From: Bradymonadia bacterium
GTDB lineage: Bacteria > Myxococcota_A > Bradymonadia > UBA7976 > UBA1532
Assembly: GCA_046290225.1 (NCBI GenBank)
Contig: JBKAGE010000001.1
Span: 96,134 to 160,133, forward strand
Direction: 5' to 3'
DNA length: 64,000 bases
Below, in pieces: positions 5,088 through 23,452 of this stretch. The first letter of the stretch is position 1. The number at the start of each line of letters is the position of its first letter. Both the position numbers and the translations under genes were made by a program. Below the pieces are notes generated by a model that did no database searches, was not told the origin of the DNA, and saw nothing but the letters and a program-made list of their open reading frames with translations.

Positions 5088-5140
5088 TCACTGGTCTGCC
5101 GCTCGTTTTAAGCGCAACCCCCACCCCTCCAGCCTCACTA

Positions 5141-5156
5141 CGGTCTGAAACTTGCT
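5141..5156 (+). promoter_or_regulatory. Possible sigma-54 type -24/-12 promoter
   Basis: CGGTCTGAAACTTGCT fits GG-N10-GC with TTGCT, 80 bp upstream of the S8 gene; the -24 element is a weak match to TGGCAC. Confidence 0.25.
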
Positions 5157-5235
5157 TTTCCGTGCGTACGTGCACGGCAGACGTGGTCTCTCCTGACCGT
5201 CTGCTGGTCAGAGACATCAGAAGTTCGAGGATCAT

Positions 5236-7986
5236 ATGCGTTTTATCTGGGCCCTCCTCGGGGGCAGCCTGCTGATCACTGGACCCGGCCACGCTCAGCT
5301 CACCCCAGGGTCCACAGGCCCCACCACAGCGCCCGTTGCGCGCAGGATCGACGGGAAGTTCACCGTGCTCCGCGCAGCCATCGACCGACATGGCCATCGC
5401 GCGCCGATCTTCGGCCCCGAGGGCCTGCCCGCTGAGACAGATCTCAGCCGACTCGGCGCCACCCTCCGTTTCACCGAAGCCCTGGCCCCTGGGCAGATCG
5501 CGCAGCTCGAAGATAACGGCGTCGCCTTCGATCGTCGGGACGGAGAAGTAATCGCGCTGGGCACCGTCTACCCCGTACGGGTGACCTGGGCCGCCTTGCG
5601 ATTCCTCGAAGCGTATCCAGGCCTCGTGCGCGCCGAGGCGAGCTGGCGCCCCTTCACCCTGAGCCCCTTGGAGATTACGGGCCTTCAATCCGGCACCGCG
5701 GCGGCGCGATGGCGAACTGAAGACGGCACTGATGGCACTGGCGTCACCGTGGCCACCATCGACAGCGGGGTGGACAGCCTGCACCCCCACTTCTTCAAGG
5801 CCGACGGCGAGTGGTTCGACTGGGTCGACGCCAATGGCGACGGTGACTTCGACCTGGGCACTGACGGGGTGGACTACGACAAAGACGGCAGCCTCGATGA
5901 CAACGAGGTGATGCGGGTGCTCGACGCGGGCACCACAGGCTTCGGCTTTGGGCCCGCTGATGGCTTGGACGGCGTCCTCCAGCCCCGTCTCGACTGGCTC
6001 TACATCGACGTCAACGGCGATCGTCGACGCAACGTCGGCACTGACGATGGCTTCACCGAGTCTGATCCGGCCTACGGCGAGCCCCTCTTCGTCGTCGACG
6101 ACGTCAACGGCAATGACGCCCTCGATCCCGGTGAGAAGGTGGTGCAGCTCGTCACCAGCAAGATCAGCAAGCTGGTATACGGCGAGCAGACCTTCACCCG
6201 AGGCGGCCCTCCGGGCTCGGGCCTCATCGACGCCGTGAAGCATCCGATCCACGAGGGCTCGTTCCACGGCACGGGGGTGGCCAGCATCATCGTCGGCGGC
6301 CAGGCGGGCTTCCACGATCGCGTGGGCATGGCCCCCGGCTCGGAGATCATCAGCTACTCACCGTACGGCGAGCAGCAGGATCTCGAGTACGCCGGACAGG
6401 CCCGGGCCATCGCCGATGCCCTCGACAGCGGCGCCCGTCTCATCGTGCACGAGTGGACCGATCCGTTCTTCGTGGTGCAAGACGGCTCCACCAACCTCGA
6501 GGCGGCCATGGACGCCGCTCGAAATGGTGGCCTGATCCAGGTGAACCCCCTCGGCAACCTCAACGTGGCCCGCAAGCACGCGATCCGTGAAGTGAACGCA
6601 GGCGACAGCCTCTCTCTGAGCTTCGAGGTGGGTCCGGGCTTTCAGAGCGGCTTCGGATTCCAGCCCTACACAGTGTCGTACGGCCTGGTCATGTGGCAGG
6701 GGGATCACAACCTCACCGTGGGGGTGAGGCGGCCCTTCAGTGCCAGCACCATCAACGTGCCCCTCGATGGGCAATATCACGATCTCGGCGAGCGCACCTT
6801 CGCCCAGGCATACTGGGATGTGACCGATCGCGGCACGCGCTATGCCCTGGTCTTCGTCTTCAAAGAAGATTTCAACGGCGCAGAGGGCCTCACTGAAGGT
6901 GCATGGAACCTCGAGCTCGGAGGCTTCGCCGAGGCCGACACGGTACATGCCCGCATCGCGGACTACTACTCGAGCTGGGGCCTGGGCATCGCCTGGGAAG
7001 ACGCCACCCCCGACGTGAGCAGCGCGGTGTTCCCTTCGACCGCCGACTCGGCCATCGGGGTGGCAGCCTACGGCGGCCGTCACGATCTGCCTGACTTTGA
7101 TGGCAGCCGCGCCGGTGAGCTGCGCAACTACTCAGGCCGTGGCCCACGCATCGATGGTGCGCCGGTGGTGGACATCGCCGCCTCTGATGATCCTTACGCT
7201 GCCATGGCGGCCACAGCCGAAACGATTCAGGCGGGCTATGGACGCTCCTGGTTCAGCACCTTCGGCGGCACCAGCGGCGCGGGCCCTCACGTAGCGGGTG
7301 CCCTGGCCCTCATGGCAGCCCATGATCCGGAGGCGAGCGCCACGGCCCTGGAAGATCGCCTCATCGCCACAGTGGATCAGTCGGCGCCGGTGCCCGACTA
7401 CGGCGCCTTCCCGAACGATCACTGGGGGTATGGCCGCCTCGACGCCTACCGGGCGATCTACGACGCTCAGGCGCCGATCCCCGATCAGCGCCCTGATGTG
7501 GTGGTGGATGTGCAGGTCACCGAGTCCGAGGTGATCTTCGATCCCAGCCGCTCCAGTGATCCTGAGGGGGCGGCCATGAAGGTGCGCTTCGACATCGACT
7601 ACGACGGCCGCTGGGAGTCGACGTGGCAGGATCTCACCCCCATGGCGATGCCCTTGGACGTCTTCGGCGGCGAGCCTGGACTGGCCAAAGTGCAAATCAG
7701 AGACGTGAGCGGTGCGACCCACGGGTTGCTGGTGCCCTTCGATCCCAGTCAGGTGACACCCCCACCCATGCCTGATGCAGGCGTCTCTCCCGAGGCCGAC
7801 TCGGGCCCGAACGGCGGCTCCGGTGGAGGCGCTGGAGGCGGCAACTCTTCTGATGGTGGCATCGACGTGATGCGGGCCACCGACGATGGTGGCTGCAACT
7901 GCTCGACGAAGGGCACAAGCCCAGCGGCCTTGCTCTGGCCACTGCTGGTCCTGGCAGGGCTTGCACGCAGGCGCGCCTCTCGCTGA
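5236..7986 (+). CDS. S8 (subtilisin-family) serine peptidase with MYXO-CTERM-type sorting tail
   Basis: Catalytic motifs IDSG, HGTGVA and GTSGAGPHVAG; signal peptide; PKD-like region; C-terminus GCNCS...LLWPLLVLAGLARRR. Confidence 0.9.
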   Translation: MRFIWALLGGSLLITGPGHAQLTPGSTGPTTAPVARRIDGKFTVLRAAIDRHGHRAPIFGPEGLPAETDLSRLGATLRFTEALAPGQIAQLEDNGVAFDRRDGEVIALGTVYPVRVTWAALRFLEAYPGLVRAEASWRPFTLSPLEITGLQSGTAAARWRTEDGTDGTGVTVATIDSGVDSLHPHFFKADGEWFDWVDANGDGDFDLGTDGVDYDKDGSLDDNEVMRVLDAGTTGFGFGPADGLDGVLQPRLDWLYIDVNGDRRRNVGTDDGFTESDPAYGEPLFVVDDVNGNDALDPGEKVVQLVTSKISKLVYGEQTFTRGGPPGSGLIDAVKHPIHEGSFHGTGVASIIVGGQAGFHDRVGMAPGSEIISYSPYGEQQDLEYAGQARAIADALDSGARLIVHEWTDPFFVVQDGSTNLEAAMDAARNGGLIQVNPLGNLNVARKHAIREVNAGDSLSLSFEVGPGFQSGFGFQPYTVSYGLVMWQGDHNLTVGVRRPFSASTINVPLDGQYHDLGERTFAQAYWDVTDRGTRYALVFVFKEDFNGAEGLTEGAWNLELGGFAEADTVHARIADYYSSWGLGIAWEDATPDVSSAVFPSTADSAIGVAAYGGRHDLPDFDGSRAGELRNYSGRGPRIDGAPVVDIAASDDPYAAMAATAETIQAGYGRSWFSTFGGTSGAGPHVAGALALMAAHDPEASATALEDRLIATVDQSAPVPDYGAFPNDHWGYGRLDAYRAIYDAQAPIPDQRPDVVVDVQVTESEVIFDPSRSSDPEGAAMKVRFDIDYDGRWESTWQDLTPMAMPLDVFGGEPGLAKVQIRDVSGATHGLLVPFDPSQVTPPPMPDAGVSPEADSGPNGGSGGGAGGGNSSDGGIDVMRATDDGGCNCSTKGTSPAALLWPLLVLAGLARRRASR

Positions 7987-8676: not shown

Positions 8677-10140
8677 GTGGCCACTCAAACCGATCAGGTG
8701 TCGACCGAGCCCGATCTCGTACAGCACACGGGCACCCGCGAGTTCAGTCGCCGATTGCCCCTGAGCATCAGCGCCCAAACGCTGTATGACTGGCACGCCC
8801 GGCCGGGGGCCTTCGAACGCCTCGCCCCACCTTGGGAGGACATCGAGGTGGTGCACAAAGCCGGGGGAATCGAGGACGGCGCCCAGCTGATCATGAAGAT
8901 CAAGAAGGGCCCCTTCAAACTCACATGGGAAGCCCTGCACCAGGGTCACGTCCCTGGTGCGCAGTTCCAGGACCAGCAAGTGCGTGGACCCTTCGGGTTC
9001 TGGTTGCACACCCACCGGTTCGAAGAGCGAGAGGGCGGCAGCATGTTGCACGATCATGTGCAGTATCGACTGCCCGTACACCCACTCGGGCAGTGGTTCG
9101 GTGGATGGTTCGCCCGACGCATGCTCGACCAGATGTTCACCCATCGTCATCACCGCACGCAGGCAGATCTCATGCGACACCAGGCCTTCGCCGATCAGCG
9201 CCCCCTCACTGTGGTCATCGCCGGGGCCAGCGGCCTCGTGGGCAGCGCCCTGACCCCCTTCTTGACTACGGGTGGCCACAGCGTGCGGCGGCTGGTGCGC
9301 CGGCCCGCTGCTGGTCAGGGCGTGCCCGAGAACACCGAGCATCGGTGGGATCCGGCAAAGGGCGAGCTCGATCCGTCGATCTTCGAAGGCGTCGACGCAG
9401 TGATCTGTCTCTCTGGGGCTGGGGTGGCCGACAAACGATGGAGCCCTGATCGCAAACGCGTGCTCGTCGAGAGTCGCACCGACACGGTGGGTCTCATCGC
9501 CCGCACCCTCGCTGAGCTGAAAGCCCAGGGTCGGCCGTGCCCCCAGACCTTCATCGCCGCCTCGGCCATCGGGTACTACGGATTTCACCGAGACGACCAC
9601 GACGCCTTCTCCGAGGCCGACGCCCCTGGGGAAGACTTCCTCGCCCGGCTCTGCGTAGACTGGGAGAAAGCTGCAGAGCCGGCCCGAGACGCAGGCATCC
9701 GGGTGGTGACCCCACGGATCGGGGTGGTGATGTCTCCCAAGGGGGGCGCCCTGGGCAAGCTGCTCACCCCTTTCAAGCTCGGCGGCGGTGGGCCTGTGGG
9801 CCACGGCGGGCAGATGATGAGCTGGATCGCCCTCGACGATCTCGTGGGGCTGATTCACTTCGCTCTGCTCGACGAGCGTGTCGAGGGACCGGTGAACGCC
9901 GTGGCGCCGAACCCGGTCACCAGCCGTGAGTTCGCCAGAACGCTGGGCCGGGTGCTCAAACGACCAGCGATCATCCCTGCCCCTGCCTTTGCCATCAAAG
10001 CGGCCTTCGGTGAGATGGGCGAGACGGTGCTGCTCCATGGGCAACGCGTGAAGCCCCAGGCCCTCATCGACGCGGGCTTTCAGTGGCAGCACCCTCACCT
10101 CGAAGATGCTCTGCGCCACGAGCTGGGCCTGATTCAGTGA
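8677..10140 (+). CDS. SRPBCC domain fused to a TIGR01777-family NAD-dependent epimerase-like protein
   Basis: N-terminal WHARPGAFERLAPPW and FQDQQVRGPF..W.HTHRF; Rossmann motif GASGLVG; ASAIGYYG; GQMMSWIALDD; PVNAVAPNPV. Confidence 0.9.
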   Translation: MATQTDQVSTEPDLVQHTGTREFSRRLPLSISAQTLYDWHARPGAFERLAPPWEDIEVVHKAGGIEDGAQLIMKIKKGPFKLTWEALHQGHVPGAQFQDQQVRGPFGFWLHTHRFEEREGGSMLHDHVQYRLPVHPLGQWFGGWFARRMLDQMFTHRHHRTQADLMRHQAFADQRPLTVVIAGASGLVGSALTPFLTTGGHSVRRLVRRPAAGQGVPENTEHRWDPAKGELDPSIFEGVDAVICLSGAGVADKRWSPDRKRVLVESRTDTVGLIARTLAELKAQGRPCPQTFIAASAIGYYGFHRDDHDAFSEADAPGEDFLARLCVDWEKAAEPARDAGIRVVTPRIGVVMSPKGGALGKLLTPFKLGGGGPVGHGGQMMSWIALDDLVGLIHFALLDERVEGPVNAVAPNPVTSREFARTLGRVLKRPAIIPAPAFAIKAAFGEMGETVLLHGQRVKPQALIDAGFQWQHPHLEDALRHELGLIQ

Positions 10141-10632: not shown

Positions 10633-11889
10633 ATGACCCGCGCTATCTGTTGGATCGCCGCGGCATCGCTCTTTGGTGGCTGTGCCGGCGATGCAGAAAC
10701 TTCCCTGGGCAACGAGCGTGTCCGTGCCCCCGATGCTCAAATGGCCCCTGACGCAGCAGGCCCCCTCCCCGGGCAACCGGACATGGGCCTGCCCGACACC
10801 GACGCCGCCGTGGGCTCTGCCGATGTGGGTACGGCCGATCCGGACGCGATGGCTGCAGATCCCGACGCCGGGCGCGATGAACCCGACGCCGAGGTGATGC
10901 CGGATCCTGATGCAGCCATGGGTGAAGCTGATGCCGAGCCTGACGCTGACATCGACGCACCCGATGCGGCGCCTGAGCCCGACATGGGACCTGTCGATCC
11001 GAACCTCGACCCTGGGGCACCAGGGCCCTATGCGGTCTCTGTGGAGGCTGGGGTGAACGTGGCCCTGCCCGAGAACAGCAGCAGCACACTCATCGTGTGC
11101 ACCCCTGAAGAGAACGGTGCCCCCCTCGACGAGGCGCTGCCTCTGGTGGTCATCTCCCCGGGCTTCCAGCTCGAGACCAGCCTCTACCGTTCATACTGCG
11201 AGCGCATCGCCAGCTGGGGCTTTTTCACGGTCATCCGTAGCCTCAACGTAGTGGGCTTCACCGCAGACCACCCTGCGATGGCTCGGGATCTCAGCGGCCT
11301 CATCGACGTACTCACCGCCAACGACAGCCCCTATGCAGGGCAGATCGATGCCTCGGCCATTGCCGCAGCAGGCCACTCCCTCGGCGGAAAGCTGAGCGCC
11401 CTCGCTGCCGCTGACGATGATCGCATTGATGGGGTGATCGGCTGGGATCCGGTTGATGCTGATCCCCCCGGCGGCTTCGGCGTCGGCGCCTCAGTCGTGC
11501 CAGAGCGCGGGGGTGATCTGTCGATGCCCGTGCTGGTCTTTGGTGAGACCCTCGATGCTGATCCGGTCTTCGGGTTCGGGCCCTCGTGCGCCCCCGCTGA
11601 CCAGAACTACACGCAGTACTATGACGCCGCCTCTGGGGAGGCCACGGAGATCACCTTCGCCGGGGCTGATCACGTGGACTGGCTCGACAATGTCAACTGT
11701 GGGCTGTTCTGCAACGCGTGCCAGTCAGGCATGGCCGATGATGCGGTGGTGCGCTCGATCACTCAACGCACCACAGTGGCCTTCTTGCTGCTGCACTTGC
11801 AGGGTATGCAGGGCATGGCCCGCTGGGTCGATGGTGACGGCCTCGACGCCGACGAGCAGGCAGGGACGATCACGGTGCGCTCTCGTTGA
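10633..11889 (+). CDS. Chlorophyllase/cutinase-like alpha/beta hydrolase lipoprotein
   Basis: Lipobox LFGGC; Asp/Pro-rich linker; nucleophile elbow GHSLGG; DPVD; HVDWLD. Confidence 0.8.
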   Translation: MTRAICWIAAASLFGGCAGDAETSLGNERVRAPDAQMAPDAAGPLPGQPDMGLPDTDAAVGSADVGTADPDAMAADPDAGRDEPDAEVMPDPDAAMGEADAEPDADIDAPDAAPEPDMGPVDPNLDPGAPGPYAVSVEAGVNVALPENSSSTLIVCTPEENGAPLDEALPLVVISPGFQLETSLYRSYCERIASWGFFTVIRSLNVVGFTADHPAMARDLSGLIDVLTANDSPYAGQIDASAIAAAGHSLGGKLSALAAADDDRIDGVIGWDPVDADPPGGFGVGASVVPERGGDLSMPVLVFGETLDADPVFGFGPSCAPADQNYTQYYDAASGEATEITFAGADHVDWLDNVNCGLFCNACQSGMADDAVVRSITQRTTVAFLLLHLQGMQGMARWVDGDGLDADEQAGTITVRSR

Positions 11890-11890
11890 C

Positions 11891-13732
11891 TCACTGCCCC
11901 GCCTGCTGATCTGAGAGCCAGGCCAGCGCAGCCTGAGCCGCCTCGCCTTGCACGCCATACCGACCGATCAGCCCCTTTACCCGGCTGTGATTCACCGAGT
12001 GCACATCCCCTTCGAGCACCATCTCTGCCAGGGCCGTCTGCATCTCCGGGGTCAGACGGCCCGCGCGGGCCTGCTCGTCGAGCGCGTCGAGGGCCGAGCC
12101 CTGCACGCCATAGTCAGCGTCGAGCGCCAGATCCAGCAACAACGCCCCAGCCCCAGGATCAGCCACAGCCCGCAGGGCCGTCGCCGTCGCCGCTCGCACA
12201 CCCACCTCGGGGTGCTGGGCGTCGCCTTCGAGCAGCTGTACCAGCTCAGATCGGGCGGTGTTGCCCAGCGCACGGATCATGTCTCCACGAGCCTCGGTGT
12301 CTTCGATGCCATCCAGCCCGGAGGCGAGGCGCTGGTAGGCCTGCACGCTACGGCCCTCGTCGCTGTGGTGATCGATGGCGCTGCCCAGAGCGAATGCCGC
12401 AGCCATGGGCGCTGCGCCTGCCGCGTCGCTGGTCAGCTCCTCCTCGAGCCAATCGAGTGAAGCCGCAGTGGTCGACTCCACCATGGAGAACCGCTGAATC
12501 AGCAACCCACGCTCGTCATCTGCCCGCGCAGCGGGGGTCTCCAGAGCTGTACGCAGTGCGTTCTGTGCCTGTGGATGGCCAGCGTTGGCCAGCAGATCAG
12601 CTACGAGGGCGCGGCCCTTCTGGCCCAGGGCCGGCTCTTCGAAGAGGGTGACCAGCTGCTCGCACAGCTCCGGCTGAAGCCTGAGCAGCCCCGTGGCGCG
12701 CCAGAGCCACCGCTGGTGATCAGGCATCTCCCCAGCAGGGCCGAAGCGCATCAGGTCATCGCTGATCTGGTCGAAGGTCAGCCCCGCCGCTCGACGCGTG
12801 AGCATCTGGCGCTCGGCATCGGCGCTCACTTTGATCTGACCGGGCACTCGACGCTCAAGCTCTGTCTTCTGTTGCGCCACGACCTCAGCTTCAGTGATGT
12901 CCACGAGCACAAGGCTCAGGCTGTGATGCGCGGAGAGACCATGCCCCGGCTCGGAGACCTCGATGTGCATCGTGCTCTGGAGATCCACCACATGGCCTGC
13001 AGGACTCACGTGGGCCAGGGTGCGCCCATCCACAGGGGCCCCACCCTCGGGCAAGGCCTGTAGACGCTCGCATTGTTCGCGCCGGCGCTCTACCTGCCAC
13101 TGGGCCCCCACCTCAGTGGCTGTATAGTCCCCCACCATGGCGCCGTACTGTGTGTACTGCTCAGCCGACCACGCCCCCTCCGCTTGCACCACGAGTTCAA
13201 GCTCCGAGGCCATCATCTGAGCGATGTGCTTGAAGAGACGGTGGCTGTCCTGAGGCATGTCGATGGCCCGCACGCGCCCGTCGAGACCCACAGTCAGCTC
13301 TGCATAGGCACCATCGAACACAGCAGCAGCGGCCTCTGCGCTGGGGATCGCATCGGTGTCGAGGACCATCAGCCGATGTCGGGTGACGTCGGCGAGGCGC
13401 ACCTTCAACCGCCAATGATCAGCGGCCTGAGCGATGGGCTCGATGATCCAGATGCCTTCGAGATCAGCCTGACCAGCGATGTCGACGGTCTCTCCTACAC
13501 CCACAGTCCGCGTCACGGTCTGCTCTGCGGTGTAGGTGAGCTGGTAGCGGTAGCGTCGGCCGAGTTGCCACGCCAGCTGTGGGCCGTCGCCAAGTGAAGC
13601 CTGCCGAGTGATGGTGTTGTGTTTGGCGGTCTGCTCAGGCTGTGAGGCGGCCTGCTCGCTCTCACCGCCAAAGCCCGCCCAGAGTGCCACCGAGATGCCC
13701 GCCGCTGCCGTGATGATGCCAATACGCCGCAT
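11891..13732 (-). CDS. Secreted or membrane-anchored protein with N-terminal beta domain and HEAT-like helical repeats (vitellogenin_N-like)
   Basis: N-terminal hydrophobic segment; WQLGRRYRYQLTY; helical motifs DLLANAGHPQAQNAL, FALGSA, IRALGNT, VRAATATALR. Confidence 0.75.
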   Translation of the reverse strand: MRRIGIITAAAGISVALWAGFGGESEQAASQPEQTAKHNTITRQASLGDGPQLAWQLGRRYRYQLTYTAEQTVTRTVGVGETVDIAGQADLEGIWIIEPIAQAADHWRLKVRLADVTRHRLMVLDTDAIPSAEAAAAVFDGAYAELTVGLDGRVRAIDMPQDSHRLFKHIAQMMASELELVVQAEGAWSAEQYTQYGAMVGDYTATEVGAQWQVERRREQCERLQALPEGGAPVDGRTLAHVSPAGHVVDLQSTMHIEVSEPGHGLSAHHSLSLVLVDITEAEVVAQQKTELERRVPGQIKVSADAERQMLTRRAAGLTFDQISDDLMRFGPAGEMPDHQRWLWRATGLLRLQPELCEQLVTLFEEPALGQKGRALVADLLANAGHPQAQNALRTALETPAARADDERGLLIQRFSMVESTTAASLDWLEEELTSDAAGAAPMAAAFALGSAIDHHSDEGRSVQAYQRLASGLDGIEDTEARGDMIRALGNTARSELVQLLEGDAQHPEVGVRAATATALRAVADPGAGALLLDLALDADYGVQGSALDALDEQARAGRLTPEMQTALAEMVLEGDVHSVNHSRVKGLIGRYGVQGEAAQAALAWLSDQQAGQ

Positions 13733-13787
13733 GATCTTGCTCCTGAAGTCCGAGGTCTCTGCCTTGGGCTACGCAAGATCGATACGG

Positions 13788-13799
13788 CTTTTTTTCGAG
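13788..13799 (-). promoter_or_regulatory. 12-bp motif CTCGAAAAAAAG, copy 1, upstream of the 613-aa gene
   Basis: Plus strand CTTTTTTTCGAG, identical to 16807-16818; both copies are followed on the minus strand by GCGTAG after 13-15 nt. Confidence 0.5.
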
Positions 13800-13803
13800 C
13801 ACG

Positions 13804-14271
13804 ATGTTTTTGTCACCATCGTGCGAAACAACCACTGCTGAAGTGCCAATCAACATACATGTCATGGTGGCGATGCGTAGATGGGGTCAGCTCTACCTTG
13901 AGCTCGTCAGACATCCTGGAGGATGGGAAAACTCCATCCCATTCTTCCGCTATACTCTGCTCACCCACGACGGCTTGAGAGACACAACCCTCGTCCACAC
14001 ACTCAAAACCGTGGTCGACAACCTCGCAGGAGAGGAGATCATGCCGTACGGAAACCGCTATCTGGAAGCACTTGAGAGCCGAGGCGAGGCCCGCGGTCAA
14101 GCGATGACCCGCATCGAGATGACCATGAAGGTCATCCGTCGCTTCTTCCCAGATGAGGCAGAATCTGCGCGCTCATGGGTAGAGCAGGCAACACCCGAGA
14201 TGATTGATGGCATGATCGACCGGCTCGTCGACGCCAGGACCTTGGCAGAGCTGTTGGGTCAACTACCATAA
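13804..14271 (+). pseudogene. C-terminal remnant of an Rpn (YhgA-like PD-(D/E)XK) protein; the small internal ORF 14041-14271 may be intact (RpnS-like)
   Basis: FFRYTL...EEIM...LESRGEARG...WVEQAT.EMIDGMIDRLVDARTLAELL matches Rpn/DUF4351-like tails; no nuclease N-terminus; strong SD GAGGAG just before ATG 14041; visibly lower GC. Confidence 0.65.
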
Positions 14272-14276
14272 CGTAA

Positions 14277-14347
14277 AACGCCCGCCCCCGACTCGCTGTG
14301 CATAGCGAGCCAGAAGCGGGCGTTCGCTCAAATGAGCGCGCTCATTT
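14277..14347. terminator. Hairpin plus palindrome between convergent genes (probable terminator)
   Basis: AACGCCCGC (14277-85) pairs with GCGGGCGTT (14316-24) around an inner CTCGCT/AGCGAG stem, with an A-run on the left; perfect 18-bp palindrome AAATGAGCGCGCTCATTT at 14330-14347. Confidence 0.6.
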
Positions 14348-16705
14348 TCAGGGGTTCGCAGCGAGCGACTGCAACCCGAAGAGCGGCACCTTCAGCTTCG
14401 TCTTGAAGATGTTCGTGTTCCACTTGGGGCCGGTCCACTTGAAGATGGTCACCTGACCCTTCACGCAGAAGGGGCACCAGCCCGCCTCGCCCCAGAGGGC
14501 GATCTTGCCGCTCAGAGCCCGGAAGGCGAAGTCGAGGCCCGTCTCGACCACCAGCTCCAGGGCGCGGATGTCACCGCGGGGCGCGTTGAGAGCGATCTTG
14601 GCCTTGAAGGGCAGCGACATGTTCAGGAACTCCAGGGTGCCCTTGATGCCCGCTCGGGCGATGAGGATGTCGATGGAGAGCGCCGCGAAGCCGTTGAGCA
14701 TGGCGTAGGGCTTCACCTGACCCTTTACGTAGGCGGCGACGTGGGTGCACTGCGCGCCACCCTTGTCCACACCAGCCTTGGCGCCGAAGCTCAAGCCCAG
14801 CTTGCCGGAGATGCCGCCTTCCACCTTCACGGGGATGAAGACCACCGTGAACCACATCGACCCCTTCACCTCCATCTTGGGGGTCTCGATCTTCTGGTCC
14901 TTCACCAGGTCGAAGGTCAGGGCACCCACCAGGTTTTTACGGCCCTTGTAGAGGCTCTTCCCGGCAATTTGAACGTCACCCTCGTACTTGTGCATGTTGG
15001 CGAAGAAGCGCACGTAGATGAGGTTCACCTGCTTGCCGAAGCCCGTGGCGCCGGCGCGGAACATGGCCTCGAACTCGGCGTTCACGTTGCAGAGGATCCG
15101 CTCGAAGTCGAAGACCCGCCAGCGCATCAGGTACTCGTAGTACAGGTTGAAGTCGTTGTTTCCGAGCTTGCTGAACTTGCTGAACTTCTGCGCGGGATCC
15201 TTCAGACCACCGCCCACCTTGGACATGGCCGCCTTCGCCGCGGCCCGGGCCTTCTCCTCTTGAGCGCGCTGCTCTGCCTGGCGACGCTCCGCCTCTGCCT
15301 TGCGGGCGTTGTCGTTGAGCTCTTTGAGCACCCGGAACAGGTCGAAGCTGCGGGGTGAGGCGAGCCAGAGGCGGCCTTCGGCGACGACGTTGCCGTCGAG
15401 GTCGAGCAGGGGCACCCCGTTGAGGTTCGTCAATACACTGTGCTCGGCCTCTTTCTGCAGTGCGCGGCATGCAGCGTAGTCCGCCTCACGCTTGTCATTC
15501 ACCTTGTCGGCGATGGCCTCCACAAGACGGCGCGGTGAGTAGTCACAAGGGGTGATCTCCCTGGCGCTCAGGCAGCCCTCTGCCTCAGCGACGAGCAGGC
15601 CCTCGACGATTTGCTCGTTGACCACCTCGAGCTCCACCTGGGCCACCTCGAGTGCGGCGCCGGCCTCTTCAGCGTCGAGAGACTCCCCGTTGCAGAAGCC
15701 TGTCTCTTCGTCGATCTCCCCATAACAGTCCCCGATGGGATCGGCCGTGGAGAGCAGGTCGATGCGGGCGACGAGATCCGCCCGGCGCTCGACGGCATAG
15801 GAGAAGGCACGCTGGGGCATATCGTGCTGCAGCATGACCTCGTCGAGCGTGTCGCTCAGTTGCCGAGCTGCCTGCATCTGCCAAGCGAGGGTGTCAGGTC
15901 GGGTACTGACCTCGGGATCTTCGAAGAGCCCTGTCAGGTGCGAGAGGCGATCATCACCAGCGATGAGATCGATGGGTGCGCCGAAGTAGGCGTTGCGTGG
16001 CACCATCTGCACCTCGCCTTGCTCGATGGGCGTGCCATCGAAACCGCGAAGCTCGGGCCCGGGATCGGAAGGGTCCAGACCCATGTGGGCAGCAGCGATG
16101 CCCTCTCGGGCCACCTCCACCATGGTGGTGTATTCAGTGCCCAGAGGGGCGATGGCATCCTCGAAGCGGCTGACGTCGTAGTATTTCTCGTAGATGTATT
16201 CCTCACAGGTCTCGAAGCCGGCGTCGTTGGCGCGATAGTCCCTCCGCTTCTGCAATACATCTTCAGTGAAACCGCCGAAAGCCGTGGTCTGGGTGTGGGT
16301 CTGGGCCACGATGTCGCCGTAGGTGTCGGCGCCTTCTCGCACATAGGTCATGCCCTCGTGGCTGTAGGGGGTCTCGGCGACCACCTCCACCTCACCCTCG
16401 GGGCTCAGCGCCAGCACCTGAGGCAGTGTGTGGGCGTTGGAGAAGCCGTGCTCGGCGAGCTGTTCGGTGCAGCTCGGGGTGCCGTCGGGGTAGGCGCTCT
16501 GGCGACGGGTGGCCTCGACGCCACACGAGGTCTCCAGATAGGCCGGTGACAGGCAATCGGCGAGTGTAGGCGGCGCGCAGAGCACGGTGGGCTCGTAGAA
16601 CACCCCAGTGGGCTCGGCGATGAAGAACTGAGCGCTGGCCTGACCGGCCACGATGGTGGCTGCGGTGGCGCAGACAACAGACGCAATTCGACGACGGAAT
16701 GACAT
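14348..16705 (-). CDS. Secreted protein: Cys-containing helical/coiled-coil N-half and basic amphipathic beta-sheet C-terminal domain
   Basis: Signal peptide ending ASA-QF; SD GGAGG; coiled coil ARKAEAERRQAEQRAQEEK; the last ~280 aa show alternating hydrophobic beta-strand patterns. Confidence 0.8.
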   Translation of the reverse strand: MSFRRRIASVVCATAATIVAGQASAQFFIAEPTGVFYEPTVLCAPPTLADCLSPAYLETSCGVEATRRQSAYPDGTPSCTEQLAEHGFSNAHTLPQVLALSPEGEVEVVAETPYSHEGMTYVREGADTYGDIVAQTHTQTTAFGGFTEDVLQKRRDYRANDAGFETCEEYIYEKYYDVSRFEDAIAPLGTEYTTMVEVAREGIAAAHMGLDPSDPGPELRGFDGTPIEQGEVQMVPRNAYFGAPIDLIAGDDRLSHLTGLFEDPEVSTRPDTLAWQMQAARQLSDTLDEVMLQHDMPQRAFSYAVERRADLVARIDLLSTADPIGDCYGEIDEETGFCNGESLDAEEAGAALEVAQVELEVVNEQIVEGLLVAEAEGCLSAREITPCDYSPRRLVEAIADKVNDKREADYAACRALQKEAEHSVLTNLNGVPLLDLDGNVVAEGRLWLASPRSFDLFRVLKELNDNARKAEAERRQAEQRAQEEKARAAAKAAMSKVGGGLKDPAQKFSKFSKLGNNDFNLYYEYLMRWRVFDFERILCNVNAEFEAMFRAGATGFGKQVNLIYVRFFANMHKYEGDVQIAGKSLYKGRKNLVGALTFDLVKDQKIETPKMEVKGSMWFTVVFIPVKVEGGISGKLGLSFGAKAGVDKGGAQCTHVAAYVKGQVKPYAMLNGFAALSIDILIARAGIKGTLEFLNMSLPFKAKIALNAPRGDIRALELVVETGLDFAFRALSGKIALWGEAGWCPFCVKGQVTIFKWTGPKWNTNIFKTKLKVPLFGLQSLAANP

Positions 16706-16855: not shown

Positions 16856-18214
16856 TCAGCGGCACGCGAGGGGCATGCTCCGGTTCACCGGTACCCAGGC
16901 CTTCGGAGCGCTGCGGGCTTTCTTGGGGGCGCTCTTGCCGATCTTGAAGGAGAAGCTCAGGGCGTCTTTGTTCAAGGCCACCGTGGAGAGGTTCAGGCCC
17001 TTGTCGCCGCCTTTGCCCATGCCCAGGGCCGCCGTGGAGAACGAGGCTTTGGTCTTGCCCATGCTGTCGCCCCACAGCTGCTTCGCCCAGGCGGTGCCGT
17101 CCGTGATGAGGGGGGGACCGATGATCTCTTCGATCTCCACACCGTTCACCCCGAGGTCCAGGGCCCCCTTCGACAGCGCCACAGAGGGGTCAGCGGCGAT
17201 GCGGGCGCGGATACAGGCACCCTGGGCGCTCCAGACGTTCACCTTCAGCGGCTTGGCGCCCCCGGCCCACTCCACAGCGGGGGTGAAGGTGCCGCTCGGC
17301 GAGGCCTTGCCGCTCATGTCGTAGGTGCTTGGCAGCTTGCCGCCGGCGATGGCCCAGTTGGCCAGCTCCACAGCGGTCGCCGGGGCGATGCGCACGTGTA
17401 CGCGATCAGAGGGCAGCGAGCGCGCCATCGAAGCGGTCATCGGGTTCAACCCCGTGGACACGGGCAGCGTCGTGCGGGCGTTCACCTGGAACACGCCATT
17501 CGCCGACGACAGCGACAGCTCGGCGATGGGCAGATCAGGCAGGGTGAAGCGCACCCGGGCCAGCTCACCGATGGGCTTGAGCACCTGGCTCTGCAGCAAG
17601 CGGAAGGCGTTGTCGGTGAGGTACTTGATGGCGCCGTCGGCGAGCTGACGCACTTGGCGCTCAGGCACGAGGTTGCGCACGAGGCTGGGTACGTTCGACA
17701 TCAACGCGCTCACCAGCTTGCTCCCGGCGTTGGCGCTCACCGAAGGGGTCACCGACTTGAGATCGTCGGCCCGAAAGGCCAGCTCGAGGGTGCCCTTTTT
17801 GGCGTCGGCCACGGGCTTGGTCTCTGTGGCCATGGACATGGTGAACAGCGAGCGGCTGCCATACCCCACGTCGAGATCGAGGCCCATCTTGTACTGCCCC
17901 TTCTGCGTCTGGGTGATGACCATGCGCTTGGGGGCGACCTTGAAGTCTTTGACGTAATCGGCGAGCCGGCCCATGCCGGGGATGGGGATCGATTTGGGGG
18001 TGATCCTGTCGATGCCGGCGCTGATGGCATCATCGAGCATCTTTTGCGGGATGGCGATCGACAGGTGGGGCGCAGTCTGCTGAGCCACCGGCTGGCGGTT
18101 CATGAAAGCATCCCGGTGGGCGGCGATCTCCTGGCAGGGGCCGCAGCCAGTGGTCAGGGCGGCGACGCCGACGCTGAAGGTGGCCCAGAGGGCGCCTCGG
18201 ATCAGGCGGTGCAT
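16856..18214 (-). CDS. Lipoprotein of unknown function, possibly TULIP/BPI-like two-domain fold
   Basis: Lipobox LTTGC; SD GGAGG; two strand-helix openings (LSIAIPQKMLDDAI and VHVRIAPATAVELAN), each followed by long beta strands. Confidence 0.65.
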   Translation of the reverse strand: MHRLIRGALWATFSVGVAALTTGCGPCQEIAAHRDAFMNRQPVAQQTAPHLSIAIPQKMLDDAISAGIDRITPKSIPIPGMGRLADYVKDFKVAPKRMVITQTQKGQYKMGLDLDVGYGSRSLFTMSMATETKPVADAKKGTLELAFRADDLKSVTPSVSANAGSKLVSALMSNVPSLVRNLVPERQVRQLADGAIKYLTDNAFRLLQSQVLKPIGELARVRFTLPDLPIAELSLSSANGVFQVNARTTLPVSTGLNPMTASMARSLPSDRVHVRIAPATAVELANWAIAGGKLPSTYDMSGKASPSGTFTPAVEWAGGAKPLKVNVWSAQGACIRARIAADPSVALSKGALDLGVNGVEIEEIIGPPLITDGTAWAKQLWGDSMGKTKASFSTAALGMGKGGDKGLNLSTVALNKDALSFSFKIGKSAPKKARSAPKAWVPVNRSMPLACR

Positions 18215-18319
18215 GTGTTTCCTCCACATTGAGCGGGCCCATCTGACCCCTTCAAGGCCTGGGGCTCAACCCTTTCTTGTGCCAGAATCCCCCGCCAGAC
18301 TCAGATCAGAGGCCACTTG

Positions 18320-20611
18320 ATGACCGACGCGCCCCAACAGACCGCCCCGACACCTGATTTCAGCGTGCACGACTTCGCCCGAGGCACCCTCAAGACGTGG
18401 GGTGTGATCAGCATCGTGCATGGCCTCGTCATGGTCCTCGCCACCTGGTTCGGGATCCCTTGGAAGTCACCGATGATCAACACCCTGCTCATCGTCCTGG
18501 GCCTCGGTGGGATCGTCGCCGGCGTGCTGCAGTGGCGTGGGGGTCGCCTGGGCTGGCGTGCAGGTCAGGTCGTGGCCTCGATCTGGCTGGTGCTGGGCAC
18601 CCTGATCATCGGCGGCCTGTTGATGTCGTGGGCCTATCTCAAGGGCATTTACGGCGACTTTGGCCGCGGCGGCGCCATCGCCAGCATGTTGGTGGCCCTG
18701 GTGGCGTTCCTGGTCATCGCGCTGGTGCCCACGCTGCACCTGCGGGCGCTGCTGCGCAAAGAAATGCGTCTGGCCTTCGGCGCCGGAGACAAGATCAAGG
18801 CCGCGGCGCTCATCATCGCACTGTTGCCTCTACCCGTGGCCTGGTGGGCCCACAGCCAGCACCACCTCGCACCTGAGGTGCCTGCTCTGAGCGCAGCGGG
18901 CCAGTTGCAGGCGGTCCAGCTGCTCAAGGCCCGGATGCAGGGGGCCGACCTGCCCCCGACCCCAGATCTCGACGGCGCCCCCATGGGGCCTGGGCCAGTG
19001 TATGTCTCTCTGTGGGGGCGAGGCGAGCTGGCCGCCCGCGTGGGGGCCGAGAGCACCGACCTCAAGAGCGCCCTGCTCGCCGCAGCCGACACGCTGAAAG
19101 ATCATCCCGTGCTCACGGGCAAACGCCTCGCCCGCCACACCCTCAAGATCGACCGTGTCGTGGCGAAAGGCCCGGTTCTCTCTTCTGCGGGGCCCATCCT
19201 CGCCCTCTCGGTGAACCCGGGCCTCGACGGCCTGCGCCGTGCCCCTGGGGCCGATGAGCTGCCCGTACAGCTCGACCCGTTCGTGGCCCTGCCCGACGAC
19301 ATGATCCAGGCCGACGTGTTCGGTGCCGCCCCCCTGGTCCCGGGCATTCGCGAGCTGCGTCTGGGGTTGGACGTCGATCAGGTGCTGCCTCGCCTGGCCA
19401 ACGACGGAGCCCCCATCGAGCGCCTGCGCCTGGAGAGCTGGGTGAGCGCGGGGCAAAAGGTGCTGCCCGTGGTCCGCGGCAACACCCCAGGCCCCGAGCC
19501 CGGCCCTGTGGCATGGCGAAACGCCGCCATCCGTGGCGGCGACTTTGTCAGGCGGCAGATTCGGAAGGACAACCGCTTCCACTATCAATACCTGCCCTAC
19601 ACAGATCATCACCCTGGGGGTGCCAACTACAGCATCCCCCGCCACGCCGGCACCGTGTACAGCCTCGCTCTGCTCTTCGGCGAGACGGGGCACAAGCGCT
19701 TCAAGCAGTCTGCAGAGCGGGCGATCCTCTGGCTCGGCGAGCAGACCCACGAGGGCTGCCTGAACGACGGCGACCGGTGTGTGGTGAAGGGCGGTGTCGC
19801 CATGCTCGGCTCCACGGCCCTCACGCTCGTCGGCATGCTGGAATACCAGCGACGTACCGGCGATACCCGCTACGCAGAGCAGGCACGCTCACTGTTGAAG
19901 TACGTCATGGCATTACAGCAGCCCAATGGTGAGTTTCAGCACAAGGTCATCGTGGGCAAGCGCCAGATCGATCCAAGCTACAAAGGCATGTTCTACAGCG
20001 AAGAGGCAGCGCTGGCTCTGGTCATGGCCCACAAGATCCTCGGCGATGACACATACCTCGCCGCAGCGGAGCGCGCGTTGAACTATCTGACCGGGCCCAA
20101 ATACGACTTCTTCCTCGGACGCTTTGTCTATGGGGCCGATCACTGGACCTGCATCGCCGCCGAGGAGGCATGGCCCACCCTCAAACACGACCAGTACTTC
20201 GATTTTTGTAAGGGCTACGCCGACTTCATCGCGCTCATGCAATACCCGCAAGAGGGCTGGCAGAATGCCGACTTCCGTGGGCACTACGGCTTCGGGGCCT
20301 TGCTGGTGCCTCAAGCGCCAGCGGCGGCGGGCTTCACCGAGGCCATCGTGTCGACCTATCGTCTCAGTCGTCACCGAGGTGCCCCAGACCCCGAGCTGAA
20401 GGCGCAGATGTCGCATGCCCTCGACGCCCTCGTGCGCGATCAGCTGCGCTTCGACAACGCCTGGCTGGTGAAACGGCCCCTGAGCGCTGTAGGCGGCTTT
20501 CGCCGTAGCCTCGTAGAGTCAGAGGTCCGCATCGACTTCACTCAACACGCTTTGAGCGCGCTGATCCGTGGCGCGGTGGTCCTCGAAGAAGAGACACGAC
20601 CGGAGAGCTGA
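18320..20611 (+). CDS. Membrane protein with ~5 TM helices, an AMMECR1-like middle region and a C-terminal alpha/alpha-toroid domain
   Basis: Hydrophobic N-terminal ~180 aa; PVYVSLWGRG; YSIPRHAGTVYSL, YSEEAALAL, DHW and VRIDFTQHALSAL motifs. Confidence 0.7.
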   Translation: MTDAPQQTAPTPDFSVHDFARGTLKTWGVISIVHGLVMVLATWFGIPWKSPMINTLLIVLGLGGIVAGVLQWRGGRLGWRAGQVVASIWLVLGTLIIGGLLMSWAYLKGIYGDFGRGGAIASMLVALVAFLVIALVPTLHLRALLRKEMRLAFGAGDKIKAAALIIALLPLPVAWWAHSQHHLAPEVPALSAAGQLQAVQLLKARMQGADLPPTPDLDGAPMGPGPVYVSLWGRGELAARVGAESTDLKSALLAAADTLKDHPVLTGKRLARHTLKIDRVVAKGPVLSSAGPILALSVNPGLDGLRRAPGADELPVQLDPFVALPDDMIQADVFGAAPLVPGIRELRLGLDVDQVLPRLANDGAPIERLRLESWVSAGQKVLPVVRGNTPGPEPGPVAWRNAAIRGGDFVRRQIRKDNRFHYQYLPYTDHHPGGANYSIPRHAGTVYSLALLFGETGHKRFKQSAERAILWLGEQTHEGCLNDGDRCVVKGGVAMLGSTALTLVGMLEYQRRTGDTRYAEQARSLLKYVMALQQPNGEFQHKVIVGKRQIDPSYKGMFYSEEAALALVMAHKILGDDTYLAAAERALNYLTGPKYDFFLGRFVYGADHWTCIAAEEAWPTLKHDQYFDFCKGYADFIALMQYPQEGWQNADFRGHYGFGALLVPQAPAAAGFTEAIVSTYRLSRHRGAPDPELKAQMSHALDALVRDQLRFDNAWLVKRPLSAVGGFRRSLVESEVRIDFTQHALSALIRGAVVLEEETRPES

Positions 20612-22041
20612 TGCGACACTGGGGTACAGGCATCGAGGGTGACTTAGAAGGCGATCTGATCGCCCTGGGCATCGGGATCCTGCTCCTGATCGCCGGCACC
20701 GGTGTCAAGCTGTGGCAATACTACATCATGCGCAAGGCTGCGCAGGCTGTGGACTTCTCGGCGAGCTCGGTGGGTCCGGGCCTGTTCAGCGAGATGGACG
20801 GCAAGCTGCACGGCCTCAGGGTGATGGTCCGGGTCAAACGCTCCGCCTGGTTCTTTCCAGAGACAGTCATCACAGCCCTGGGCCTCCCCAAAAACCTGAG
20901 AGTGCATCCTGCGGGTCTGCAATCTCGCCTCAATGATTTGATGGATGGAGATCGCGTCCTCACGGGGGATGATGTCTTCGACCAGAAGGTCTGGTTGGCG
21001 GGCGACGAGGCCGCCCTGCGCGGCGGGCTCACAGAGCAGGCCCGAGCAGCATTGAGCAAGGCGATGTCCACACACCCGTTCATGGTCGAAGACGGCACGC
21101 TCACGGCGACGATCTCCGGCCTGCCGCTCTCCAGCGGTGGCATCGTGAGCATCCTGAAGGCTCTCGACGATGCGCTGCCGCACCTGAAGGCTCTGGAAGA
21201 GGCTCGACCCGAACTCTTGAGTCGACAGGCTCTGCGCGACCCTGACACCGACGTACGCCGTGCAGCTCTGACGCAACTGCTCCACCGATTCCCCGAAGAT
21301 CCTCTGGCGACGACGACTCTTGAGAAGGTCATGGAGAGCGCACCCAGCGGCGATCAGGTCGCCGCCCTCGAACTGGCCTTCGATGGTCGCATGGGCCAGT
21401 CTTTCTGGCCGAAGCTCTGCACCCTGCTCATGTCGACCCGGCTGAAGCAGGACACCCGTTTGCAAGCCCTCGTGATCTTCTCCGCGCACATGAGCATGGT
21501 GGTGTCGCCTGATCCCCGCCCTTCTGCAGTGCTCGCCTCACTGCTGTCAGAGCCCTTCCCACTGGTGGAGGCGGTCCAACTCGCCGGTCGCCGCGTGTTC
21601 CCGGATATCCGTGCTCCACTCATGGGCCTCGAGGCGTCGTCGACCGCGCTCAAGCTGGCTCAGGTGCAAGCGTTGAGCACGTACGCTGGAGACACATACG
21701 ACGACGCACTGCAGCAACTGCTCGTCGAACGCCTCGCCGACGAGGAGCGAGAGGTTCAGGTGGCTGCCGCACACGTACTCCGAGATCATGCGGATGTGAG
21801 CGCGGTGGCCCCGCTTCAGGCCCTGCTGTCTTCTGGCATCAAGGGGGTGCTGGTCTCTGGCGAGATCAAGCGGGTGGTGGAAGAGGCGGTGTCGGCGATT
21901 CAAGGGCGCCTCGGCGAAGGCGCTGCGCACGCGGTGGGTGGCTTGACTCTGGAGGCGCTCAAAGAAAAGTCGGGTGGCCTCTCAGAAGCCACAGAAGGCC
22001 GTTTGAGCATCGCCAAACCAGAGAAATCACAACCAACATAG
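20611..22041 (+). CDS. HEAT-repeat protein with N-terminal TM anchor (paralog A)
   Basis: TM near N-terminus; TGDDVFD; DPDTDVRRAAL; C-terminal AIQGRLGEGAAHAVGGLTLE...GGLSEATEGRLS. Confidence 0.75.
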   Translation: MRHWGTGIEGDLEGDLIALGIGILLLIAGTGVKLWQYYIMRKAAQAVDFSASSVGPGLFSEMDGKLHGLRVMVRVKRSAWFFPETVITALGLPKNLRVHPAGLQSRLNDLMDGDRVLTGDDVFDQKVWLAGDEAALRGGLTEQARAALSKAMSTHPFMVEDGTLTATISGLPLSSGGIVSILKALDDALPHLKALEEARPELLSRQALRDPDTDVRRAALTQLLHRFPEDPLATTTLEKVMESAPSGDQVAALELAFDGRMGQSFWPKLCTLLMSTRLKQDTRLQALVIFSAHMSMVVSPDPRPSAVLASLLSEPFPLVEAVQLAGRRVFPDIRAPLMGLEASSTALKLAQVQALSTYAGDTYDDALQQLLVERLADEEREVQVAAAHVLRDHADVSAVAPLQALLSSGIKGVLVSGEIKRVVEEAVSAIQGRLGEGAAHAVGGLTLEALKEKSGGLSEATEGRLSIAKPEKSQPT

Positions 22042-22045
22042 CCTG

Positions 22046-23452
22046 GTGGTCATCCAACCCAAGCACCAGAATGAGGATGATGCAGCGGTGGATGGCGAGT
22101 TACTCTTGATTCTGATGGGGTTGGGTACCCTCGCTACGCTCATCTATCTCGTCTATCGCCTTGAGCGCGTGTTCAAAGACGCAGGGCAGGCAACAGGCCT
22201 GACCCTGTATGGCGACGAGTATGAGGACTGGTGGCACCGGCTCGAGGGTGAGTCTCATCAATGCCCCATCAAAGTGGTGATCGCTCGATCGCCCTGGCTG
22301 CTCCCCGAGACCCGCATCATCGTCTCAGATCTGCCGCCTCCTCTCTGTGTGCGCCCTGCTGTGCCCAACGGTACGTGTACTCTCCCCACTGGAGACGAGC
22401 GCTTCGATGGTGTTGTCGAAGTCACTGGAAACCCCCAAGTGATCCGCAGGTCCCTGTCTTCGTCTGTCCGGGATGCACTGTTCGAGGCGATGTCGCGCAG
22501 CCCCTTCATTGTGGAAGATGGTCGGCTCATCTCACGTAGGTTGGGGTTCCCTTTCTCCACGCAGTCTTTCATCGAGCGCATCGAGGCGGTCACCATGGTG
22601 CTCCCTCATCTGAAGTCGATGACTGATGGTCTCACCGCTGATTTGAGCCAACGCGCCCTCCAAGATCCCGATCCGCAGGTGCGCTTCCAAGCCCTGGCAG
22701 ATCTGCTGCGCAACTTCCCAGGACACCCTGACGGTCGACAGACGTTGGGAGACTTCGTGCACGCCCCCGATCTCGAGACACGGCTCGCCGCCCTCGAACT
22801 CGCCGCGGACAATGGGCTGCTGGACGAGTACTGGTCAATGATCTGCGCTCAAGTCACCGCGCTACAATCGACCACTGAAGCTCGCCTGTCTGCGCTGAGG
22901 CTCTTCGAGACATATGCTGACAGAGTGTTGGATCCAAACCCGGCTCCGCTGGAGGTGCTTCGGGCTCTCTTGTCGGAGCAACCCCCTGTAATAGCTTTGG
23001 TTGAGCGCCTCTTCGAGCGGGCACGGCCCGAGCTGCTGCCGGACATCATCGTGATGCAGGCAGACACGCCAGCGCTCCAAGAGCTTCAGGTGCAAGCGAT
23101 CGCACGTCATGCCCGCTCGGGGTACAGCGAAGCGATGCAAGATCTGCTGATTCGACGCCTGAGCACAGGCTCGAGCGCGGTCAAACTCGAAGCCGCACGT
23201 GTATTGGGCACCCATGGCAATGTGGAGGCAGTGGAGCCGCTGCTGAAGTCACGGACTTCGGGGATCGCTGGAGCGCTCTCGGGCACACTCAATGAGGCCA
23301 TCGATGGGGCGGTCGTCGCGATTCAAAGGCGACTTGGAGAAGGTGCAGCTCAGGCGGTGGGTGGCCTGGCCTTGGAAGAGTTCCAGGGCAAAGCAGGGGG
23401 ACTGTCAGAGGCAGTAGATGGCCGCCTGAGCGTGACCCTGGCGAAGGAGTAA
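22046..23452 (+). CDS. HEAT-repeat protein with N-terminal TM anchor (paralog B)
   Basis: Colinear with paralog A: TGDERFD; DPDPQVRFQAL; AIQRRLGEGAAQAVGGLALE...GGLSEAVDGRLS. Start may be GTG 22088. Confidence 0.75.
   Translation: MVIQPKHQNEDDAAVDGELLLILMGLGTLATLIYLVYRLERVFKDAGQATGLTLYGDEYEDWWHRLEGESHQCPIKVVIARSPWLLPETRIIVSDLPPPLCVRPAVPNGTCTLPTGDERFDGVVEVTGNPQVIRRSLSSSVRDALFEAMSRSPFIVEDGRLISRRLGFPFSTQSFIERIEAVTMVLPHLKSMTDGLTADLSQRALQDPDPQVRFQALADLLRNFPGHPDGRQTLGDFVHAPDLETRLAALELAADNGLLDEYWSMICAQVTALQSTTEARLSALRLFETYADRVLDPNPAPLEVLRALLSEQPPVIALVERLFERARPELLPDIIVMQADTPALQELQVQAIARHARSGYSEAMQDLLIRRLSTGSSAVKLEAARVLGTHGNVEAVEPLLKSRTSGIAGALSGTLNEAIDGAVVAIQRRLGEGAAQAVGGLALEEFQGKAGGLSEAVDGRLSVTLAKE

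Follow-up and report, generated by a model that had tools for sequence, protein, structure and literature searches.

The P0001-P0002 gene pair

The DNA analysed here, referred to as the window, is a stretch of 64,000 nucleotides from a Bradymonadia bacterium (GenBank assembly GCA_046290225.1, contig JBKAGE010000001.1, positions 96,134 to 160,133 of the forward strand). It includes two genes on the minus strand for proteins of 613 and 785 amino acids, designated P0001 and P0002, respectively. A first-pass annotation of the sequence had proposed that these proteins are the secreted halves of one lipid-binding cavity related to that of the large lipid transfer proteins (LLTPs), which include the microsomal triglyceride transfer protein (MTP), apolipoprotein B (apoB) and vitellogenin. 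The evidence described below tips the balance, if only slightly, towards the gene pair encoding an exported bacterial equivalent, in two chains, of the lipid-transfer module of animal LLTPs.

Both open reading frames (ORFs) and all of the peptide strings quoted in the first-pass annotation were found. In P0001, WQLGRRYRYQLTY, DLLANAGHPQAQNAL, FALGSA and IRALGNT occupy residues 55–67, 379–393, 447–452 and 486–492, respectively. The strings FIPVKVEGG, GAKAGV, VKPYAML and IARAGIKGTL in P0002 (residues 623–631, 641–646, 664–670 and 682–691) map to nucleotides 14633–14839, inside the interval 14560–14860 given for them.

The P0002 gene lies upstream of the P0001 gene, and the 615 bp between them hold an ORF on the opposite strand (Table 1) whose 155-residue product matched no family. 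Two more partial copies of the spacer sequence, with 73% and 81% identity, are present in the same genome. Because partial copies recur in this way, the spacer looks like an inserted repeated element, perhaps a small mobile or repetitive insert by which the operon was split. The gap between the paired genes in the relatives that were fetched is −3 to 292 nt.

Table 1. Features of the P0001-P0002 gene pair. Coordinates are those of the window, and the genes include their stop codons.
Feature	Coordinates	Strand	Basis or remark
P0001, gene of the 613-residue protein likened to the LLTP front half	11891..13732	-	ORF and translation
P0001 N-terminal hydrophobic segment, residues 1–23	13664..13732	-	signal peptide or uncleaved membrane anchor
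P0001 beta-barrel (N-sheet-like) domain, residues 55–280	12893..13570	-	model strands 61–278; VIA and profile alignments
P0001 helical solenoid, residues 281–613	11894..12892	-	HEAT-like; Vitellogenin_N helical part; model helices 281–612; main predicted interface with P0002
Spacer between P0001 and P0002, 615 bp	13733..14347	.	holds the 155-residue ORF
ORF of 155 residues in the spacer	13804–14271	+	opposite strand to the pair
P0002, gene of the 785-residue partner	14348..16705	-	ORF and translation
P0002 signal peptide, residues 1–25	16631..16705	-	A-S-A before Q26, read from sequence; sole hydrophobic peak
P0002 Cys-rich, mostly helical N-terminal domain, residues 40–490	15236..16588	-	AlphaFold model
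P0002 C-terminal amphipathic sheet domain, residues 505–774	14384..15193	-	conserved family core; candidate C/A-sheet lipid pocket

Predicted fold and relatives of P0001

The AlphaFold model of P0001, built on an alignment of five sequences, consists of strands at residues 61–278 followed by helices at residues 281–612, in agreement with the beta region and subsequent helical repeats that had been read from the sequence. Comparison of the model with 350,542 PDB chains using Foldseek gave ten top matches that were all LLTPs, with alignments of 604–742 columns. The E values were 3.3e-11 for MTP (6i7s_H), 1.1e-10 for lipovitellin (1lsh_A), 3.2e-9 for 8eoj_B, about 1e-9 to 1e-8 for apoB100 (9bdt, 9bd1 and 9e9r) and 1.5e-6 for bee vitellogenin (9enr_A). 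Importins and alphaReps followed in the list, from 3e-5. Using VIA, 490 residues of P0001 (between 47 and 612) were aligned to residues 22–613 of MTP, and no match to a HEAT-repeat protein covered residues 47–300 of the model. It is concluded, at the level of the predicted fold and with modest support from sequence, that P0001 has the barrel-plus-arc architecture defining the front half of an LLTP.

Among Pfam families, HEAT_2 was matched by residues 470–551 of P0001 at 36.5 bits, above the cut-off of 27.7. A word-index homologue search with P0001 found only four relatives, and repeating it with an alignment (A1) added two HEAT proteins and nothing else. Close relatives sharing 35–36% identity with P0001 matched the Pfam family Vitellogenin_N (PF01347) at 25.4, 23.3 and 19.4 bits, as compared with a cut-off of 24, and a second P0001-like copy in the same genome exceeded the cut-off at 34.3 bits. 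The family was then represented by 24 sequences, comprising the earlier relatives and 20 homologues cut from related genomes. Vitellogenin_N was matched by 15 of the 24 at E≤0.01, with seven reaching the 24-bit cut-off, and HEAT_2 was passed by all 24 at E≤0.01. A profile of the 24 members searched against PDB sequences matched lipovitellin (1lsh_A) at 6.3e-7 in two stretches, the better of which lies in the barrel (query residues 78–201 against chain residues 26–151), and MTP at 1e-4 (371–518 against 351–502). Searches of NCBIfam gave nothing meaningful for either P0001 or P0002.

P0001 has only one hydrophobic peak, a 19-residue segment at residue 4 with a Kyte-Doolittle value of 1.78, and an N-terminal start of this kind is common to all 20 relatives. 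As this start is basic and hydrophobic and lacks an obvious cleavage motif, it may be either a signal peptide or an anchor.

The C-terminal sheet domain of P0002

In P0002, a single hydrophobic segment at the N-terminus forms a classical signal peptide (A-S-A preceding residue 26), and 14 cysteines remain in the mature chain. Of the two proteins that had been described as secreted, each starts with a hydrophobic segment; the signal peptide is clear for P0002, and a cleavage site is not obvious for P0001.

P0002 matched no family in Pfam or NCBIfam. In a single-sequence search of PDB sequences, riboflavin kinase (E 0.1) was the sole match, and no relative emerged from the word-index search. An exhaustive search recovered 440 representatives at E≤1e-3, 230 of them at E≤1e-10. 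The core shared by the family is the last ~200–290 residues, which form the C-terminal end of proteins that vary greatly in length, and longer members carry Laminin_G_3, FG-GAP, fn3, DUF11, DUF7948 or propeller domains before it. In 150 representatives, the best stretches covering the sheets end at or near the C-terminus, the exception being P0031, the tail of which is not HEAT. No fused P0001-P0002 form was seen among these 150, and no search for longer forms of P0001 was made.

A good AlphaFold model of P0002 was obtained from an alignment of 63 sequences, with a predicted local distance difference test score (pLDDT) of 80.5 and a predicted template modelling score (pTM) of 0.77. In this model, residues 40–490 are mostly helical and rich in Cys, 15 strands lie between residues 505 and 774, and a helix is located at residues 775–783. 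The strands are amphipathic, as had been claimed for the end of the protein, with a mean two-residue hydrophobic moment of 1.39 compared with 0.71 ± 0.14 after shuffling of the residues of each strand; in 2000 such shuffles the observed value was never reached. Two nearly invariant cysteines are located within the sheet domain.

The best three Foldseek matches of the sheets among the same PDB chains were MTP, MTP and lipovitellin, at E values of 2.4e-3 to 5.4e-3. The best coverage was given by the lipid-binding C-terminal domain of MTP (230 residues, as compared with ~140 residues for barrels), and the domain also matches the cavity sheet of processed vitellogenin. Weak matches to the Pfam family Vit_open_b-sht (PF09172), below threshold and at best 0.0071, were found for two of the 63 family members.

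Pairing and co-diversification of the two families

The P0001 and P0002 families share their distribution across 41 related genomes, both being present in an identical set of 13, which includes 12 of the 24 from the same taxonomic family and none of the 16 from outside it. Of 30 listed places with a P0001-like gene, 22 are immediately preceded on the same strand by a P0002-like match, and for one more the match lies 5 kb upstream. The remaining seven have no P0002-like match, and five of these seven are partial matches to the helices only. The co-occurrence that the first-pass annotation had suggested looking for is therefore borne out. Twenty adjacent loci were fetched because both matches were present, hence the pairing in 20 of 20 among them is by construction.

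The same arrangement was found further afield. Among the more distant genomes of the phylum with near full-length P0001 matches, 13 were queried with a single sequence of the sheet domain; six were matched, and seven of the eight matches lie directly upstream of a P0001-like gene. In six related loci found with alignment A1, a sheet gene is directly upstream in five. A P0001 match was obtained in 218 of 301 genomes sampled from the phylum; most of these matches are to HEAT repeats only, and the tally was rejected as a measure of the distribution of P0001. Near full-length matches were found in 22 genomes from 12 families, among the matches listed.

Many paralogous pairs are present per genome, with up to ten matches in one genome. 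The genome studied here has a second, divergent pair (locus L034, contig G000:C17) on the plus strand, with genes at 242–2581 (779 residues) and 2873–4738 (621 residues) separated by 292 nt. For 21 pairs, the distance matrices of the two families gave a Mantel r of 0.918, a value that was not equalled in any of 5000 permutations, and the nearest neighbour was the same for both partners in 15 of the 21. Distances between pairs within a genome are saturated (r 0.01), which indicates that the signal comes from pairs that were inherited as units. Synteny of the two genes is strong.

A third gene conserved alongside the pair was not found: in 40 related loci (flanks of 1–4 kb), none of 11 neighbours from the window was matched at E≤1e-5, and clustering of the flanking ORFs around pairs gave only antisense shadows and local orthologs.

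Predicted complex

P0001 residues 45–613 and P0002 residues 495–785, each with its own family alignment, were modelled as a complex in three runs, together with three controls. The scores were 0.83, 0.79 and 0.77 (median 0.79), as compared with 0.00 for the best control. Of 157 solved complexes, 116 attained this mark, as did 2 of 215 mismatched pairs. Agreement in contacts between runs was at least 49%. The heterodimer proposed in the first-pass annotation is thus predicted with a confident interface, and the model is to be read as a likeness, showing a predicted interface rather than measured binding.

On the P0001 side, the predicted interface comprises the inner face of the helical arc (residues 335–591), including the invariant ALGN motif at residues 488–491, and parts of the barrel (69–89, 121–128 and 165–173). 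On the P0002 side, it is formed by sheet residues 507–695. A hand count of conserved residues at the predicted interface gave a mild, unconvincing excess, which is not used as evidence.

Other genes in the window

Just upstream of the pair, at 16856–18229 on the minus strand, is a gene for a lipoprotein-like protein of 457 residues (P0011) with a signal ending in LTTGC and no family match. Relatives of P0011 are present in 25 of the 41 related genomes, on other contigs than the pairs. The plus-strand region 18317–23452 encodes a multi-pass membrane protein of 764 residues that belongs to no family, followed by two tandem paralogs of 476 and 468 residues that are 36% identical and have an N-terminal hydrophobic segment and HEAT repeats each. 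These nearby HEAT proteins, P0008 and P0009, were considered as relatives of P0001 and found to be unrelated (E 0.21).

On the other side, an alpha/beta hydrolase (chlorophyllase / PET-hydrolase-like, 66 bits) encoded at 10633–11889 on the plus strand is convergent with P0001, the stop codons being one base apart, and its position next to the pair is not conserved in related loci. Also on the plus strand, 8677–10140 encodes an SRPBCC (Polyketide_cyc) domain of lipid-binding type fused to a TIGR01777/yfcH-type epimerase (306.9 bits), and an overlapping 601-residue ORF on the opposite strand matched no family. Region 57–7986, again on the plus strand, includes a gene for a protein of 1676 residues with Cys-rich DUF7107 repeats (263 bits; weak Myxo_Cys_RPT) and then one for a subtilase (Peptidase_S8) of 916 residues.

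Proposed organisation of the module

In the explanation favoured here, the N-sheet barrel and helical arc of P0001 would make up the front half of an LLTP-like body. The back half, in LLTPs a set of open amphipathic sheets lining the lipid pocket, would come from the last ~270 residues of P0002. The N-termini and the cysteines suggest that both chains cross the inner membrane by Sec, and P0001 possibly stays anchored by its N-terminal helix. The sheet domain is predicted to fit into the concave side of the helical arc, in contact with the barrel. By analogy with LLTPs, the amphipathic sheets of the resulting MTP-like body may hold lipid or another hydrophobic ligand. The variable N-terminal head of the sheet chain, which is Cys-rich and helical here and includes lectin, FG-GAP, fn3 or propeller domains in relatives, could serve to bring the module to its target or to a surface.

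Several points weigh against this explanation. With respect to P0001, the quality of the model is middling (pLDDT 68.9, pTM 0.43), and its Foldseek matches to LLTPs have low TM-scores of 0.25–0.35 and a root-mean-square deviation of ~20 Å. P0001 itself matched nothing in Pfam beyond HEAT_2 at E≤1 and so gave no match to Vitellogenin_N. All Vitellogenin_N matches of its relatives fall on profile positions 352–590, which are the HEAT-like helical part. A phmmer search of PDB sequences with P0001 gave no match. In the search with the 24-member profile, lipovitellin and MTP rank below many designed HEAT proteins, and generic HEAT repeats match the helical domain alone better than LLTPs do, both by profile and by VIA; alphaRep chains gave the highest VIA Z for residues 306–613 (15–19) and the strongest profile matches. 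The sequence signal in the barrel is fragile, as a profile of the barrel alone (21 sequences, A4) matched nothing in the PDB at E≤10.

The evidence for the P0002 sheets is ambiguous. None of their Foldseek matches among the 350,542 chains reached 1e-3, and the structural match is middling and tied with the wall of an outer-membrane barrel. In the protein atlas, TonB-receptor barrels (TM 0.41–0.44) are level with the vitellogenin open sheet (0.41); these neighbours, including unnamed clusters, all fall below the bar of the atlas, which has a poor model of its own for the domain, and they serve as a lead only. The resemblance of P0002 to an apoB pattern (GAKAGV..KPS..ARSGV) that had been proposed in the first-pass annotation found no support, as neither P0002 nor the profile of its 63-member family (A2) matched an LLTP chain in the PDB. 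Overall, the proposal that the two proteins are LLTP-like halves stands for P0001 at the level of the fold, with weaker support from sequence; for the P0002 sheets, the matches are middling.

The predicted complex is also subject to reservations. The pLDDT of the partner was 47–56 in the complex runs, leaving its fold uncertain there. In structures of lipovitellin and MTP, the helical arc cradles a sheet of the lipid pocket, and for this reason the pass of the complex may partly echo the intrachain packing of solved LLTPs through model memory. Co-transcription of the two genes in the window is doubtful given the 615 bp and the opposite-strand ORF that separate them. Finally, lipid binding, a role as carrier or extractor, and prey lipids as cargo are pure inference. 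Nevertheless, none of the outcomes that the first-pass annotation had named as contradicting it, i.e. a generic HEAT solenoid beside an unrelated fold, a lack of interface, or a lack of synteny, was found outright.

Alternative explanations

The alternative that survives best, though it is considered unlikely, is that P0001 and P0002 form a real complex that is not a lipid carrier. P0002-type proteins would then be secreted or surface adhesins, or toxin-like effectors, with a variable targeting head, and P0001 would be a dedicated periplasmic escort, anchor or inhibitor; the likeness to LLTPs would reflect remote ancestry or convergence without shared function. The wide variation of the N-terminal regions and their adhesion-type domains (Laminin_G_3, FG-GAP, fn3, DUF11 and propellers) are consistent with such a role, as are the 14 cysteines of mature P0002. 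Many co-diversifying paralogous pairs per genome are typical of recognition or conflict systems, and the helical domain of P0001 is best matched by generic HEAT binders. However, it is the sheet domain of the P0002 family, rather than the head, that is conserved and paired. The best structural matches of both chains also come from one superfamily, in which the corresponding parts pack together, and no toxin or enzyme family matches P0001 or P0002.

That the C-terminal domain of P0002 is an outer-membrane or pore-forming beta-barrel, held by P0001 as a periplasmic chaperone before insertion, is improbable. The two-residue periodicity of the amphipathic strands would suit a barrel, TamAB and BAM-EspP are in the Foldseek list of the sheets (E 0.05–0.3), and TonB-receptor barrels are among the neighbours in the protein atlas. 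However, barrel matches cover much less of the domain than does MTP, and in the model of the complex the sheets are, with high confidence, buried within the helical arc. Outer-membrane beta-barrels have a C-terminal strand ending in an aromatic residue, which is the signal for barrel assembly. P0002 ends in LQSLAANP, following the predicted helix at 775–783, and only six of the 63 family members end in any of F, Y or W, namely in F or Y; the usual barrel signal is hence missing. The two nearly invariant cysteines in the sheet domain also argue against a barrel.

The absence of any functional link, with a generic HEAT protein lying by chance near an unrelated secreted protein, would fit the spacer with its opposite-strand ORF and the restriction of P0001 alone to HEAT_2 in Pfam. 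This alternative retains hardly any probability, since the synteny comes near to refuting it: the families share 13 of the 41 genomes, 22 of 30 places are adjacent with order and strand preserved, and gaps in relatives are as short as −3 to 35 nt. The Mantel r of 0.918 and the complex score of 0.79 versus 0.00 for the best control also count against it.

Significance

To our knowledge, LLTPs (MTP, apoB, vitellogenin and apolipophorins) have been treated as an animal invention, and the origin of the superfamily is an open question. Full-text literature searching, with subscription journals largely outside its reach, found no paper on bacterial LLTP-like proteins. If the favoured explanation is correct, bacteria own a split version of a lipid machine known only from animals, and the conserved bacterial pair would be an outgroup for the LLTP superfamily. 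It would also offer a small, genetically tractable system for the study of lipid-pocket assembly and loading. For myxobacterial biology, the pairs would represent an unrecognised multi-copy family of exported binders of hydrophobic ligands with variable targeting heads.

A bolder extension, which we regard as rather unlikely, is that animal LLTPs have true bacterial relatives in the form of this two-gene, order-swapped module in phyla of predatory type. The single-chain animal forms would then descend from the split module, or share an ancestor with it, through fusion after gene transfer or through ancient common descent. In bacteria, the module would extract or shuttle lipids outside the cytoplasm, with interchangeable heads that target it to prey or envelope membranes.

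Comparison with known lipid transfer and HEAT-repeat proteins

With respect to predicted fold and assembly, the P0001-P0002 module resembles the lipid-transfer module of MTP. It is not a canonical member of the LLTPs: the sheets are in a separate chain, the Pfam model is missed by P0001 and the fold match of the sheets is ambiguous. In canonical LLTPs the C- and A-sheets belong to the same chain, whereas P0001 ends with its helical domain at residue 613 and the candidate sheets are on P0002. With vitellogenin, lipovitellin and apoB100 (1LSH, 9ENR, 9BDT and 9E9R), the likeness is seen in the P0001-family profile and in Foldseek, at Foldseek E values of 1e-10 to 1e-6. However, the bacterial pair is without a vWD domain, polyserine tract or further sheets. 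As compared with the Pfam families of vitellogenin (PF01347 and PF09172), P0001 misses Vitellogenin_N and its relatives match the helical part only.

P0001 also resembles HEAT-repeat proteins, with residues 470–551 matching the HEAT_2 family (PF13646) and residues 306–613 the designed alphaReps, though HEAT_2 describes one part of P0001. HEAT-repeat proteins have neither an N-terminal beta-barrel nor a conserved partner gene bearing sheets.

The smallest LLTP, the large subunit of MTP (PDB 6I7S and 8EOJ), differs from the bacterial module in being a single chain, whereas the module has two and its back-half gene lies upstream of the front-half gene. The sequences are only 8–12% identical, P0002 carries an additional Cys-rich helical domain of 450 residues, and the bacterial pair is predicted to be exported whereas MTP resides in the lumen of the endoplasmic reticulum. 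Like P0001, MTP has the barrel followed by the arc, and its one chain of 862–894 residues is close in length to the sum of the matching parts of P0001 and P0002, which are about 570 and 270 residues, respectively.

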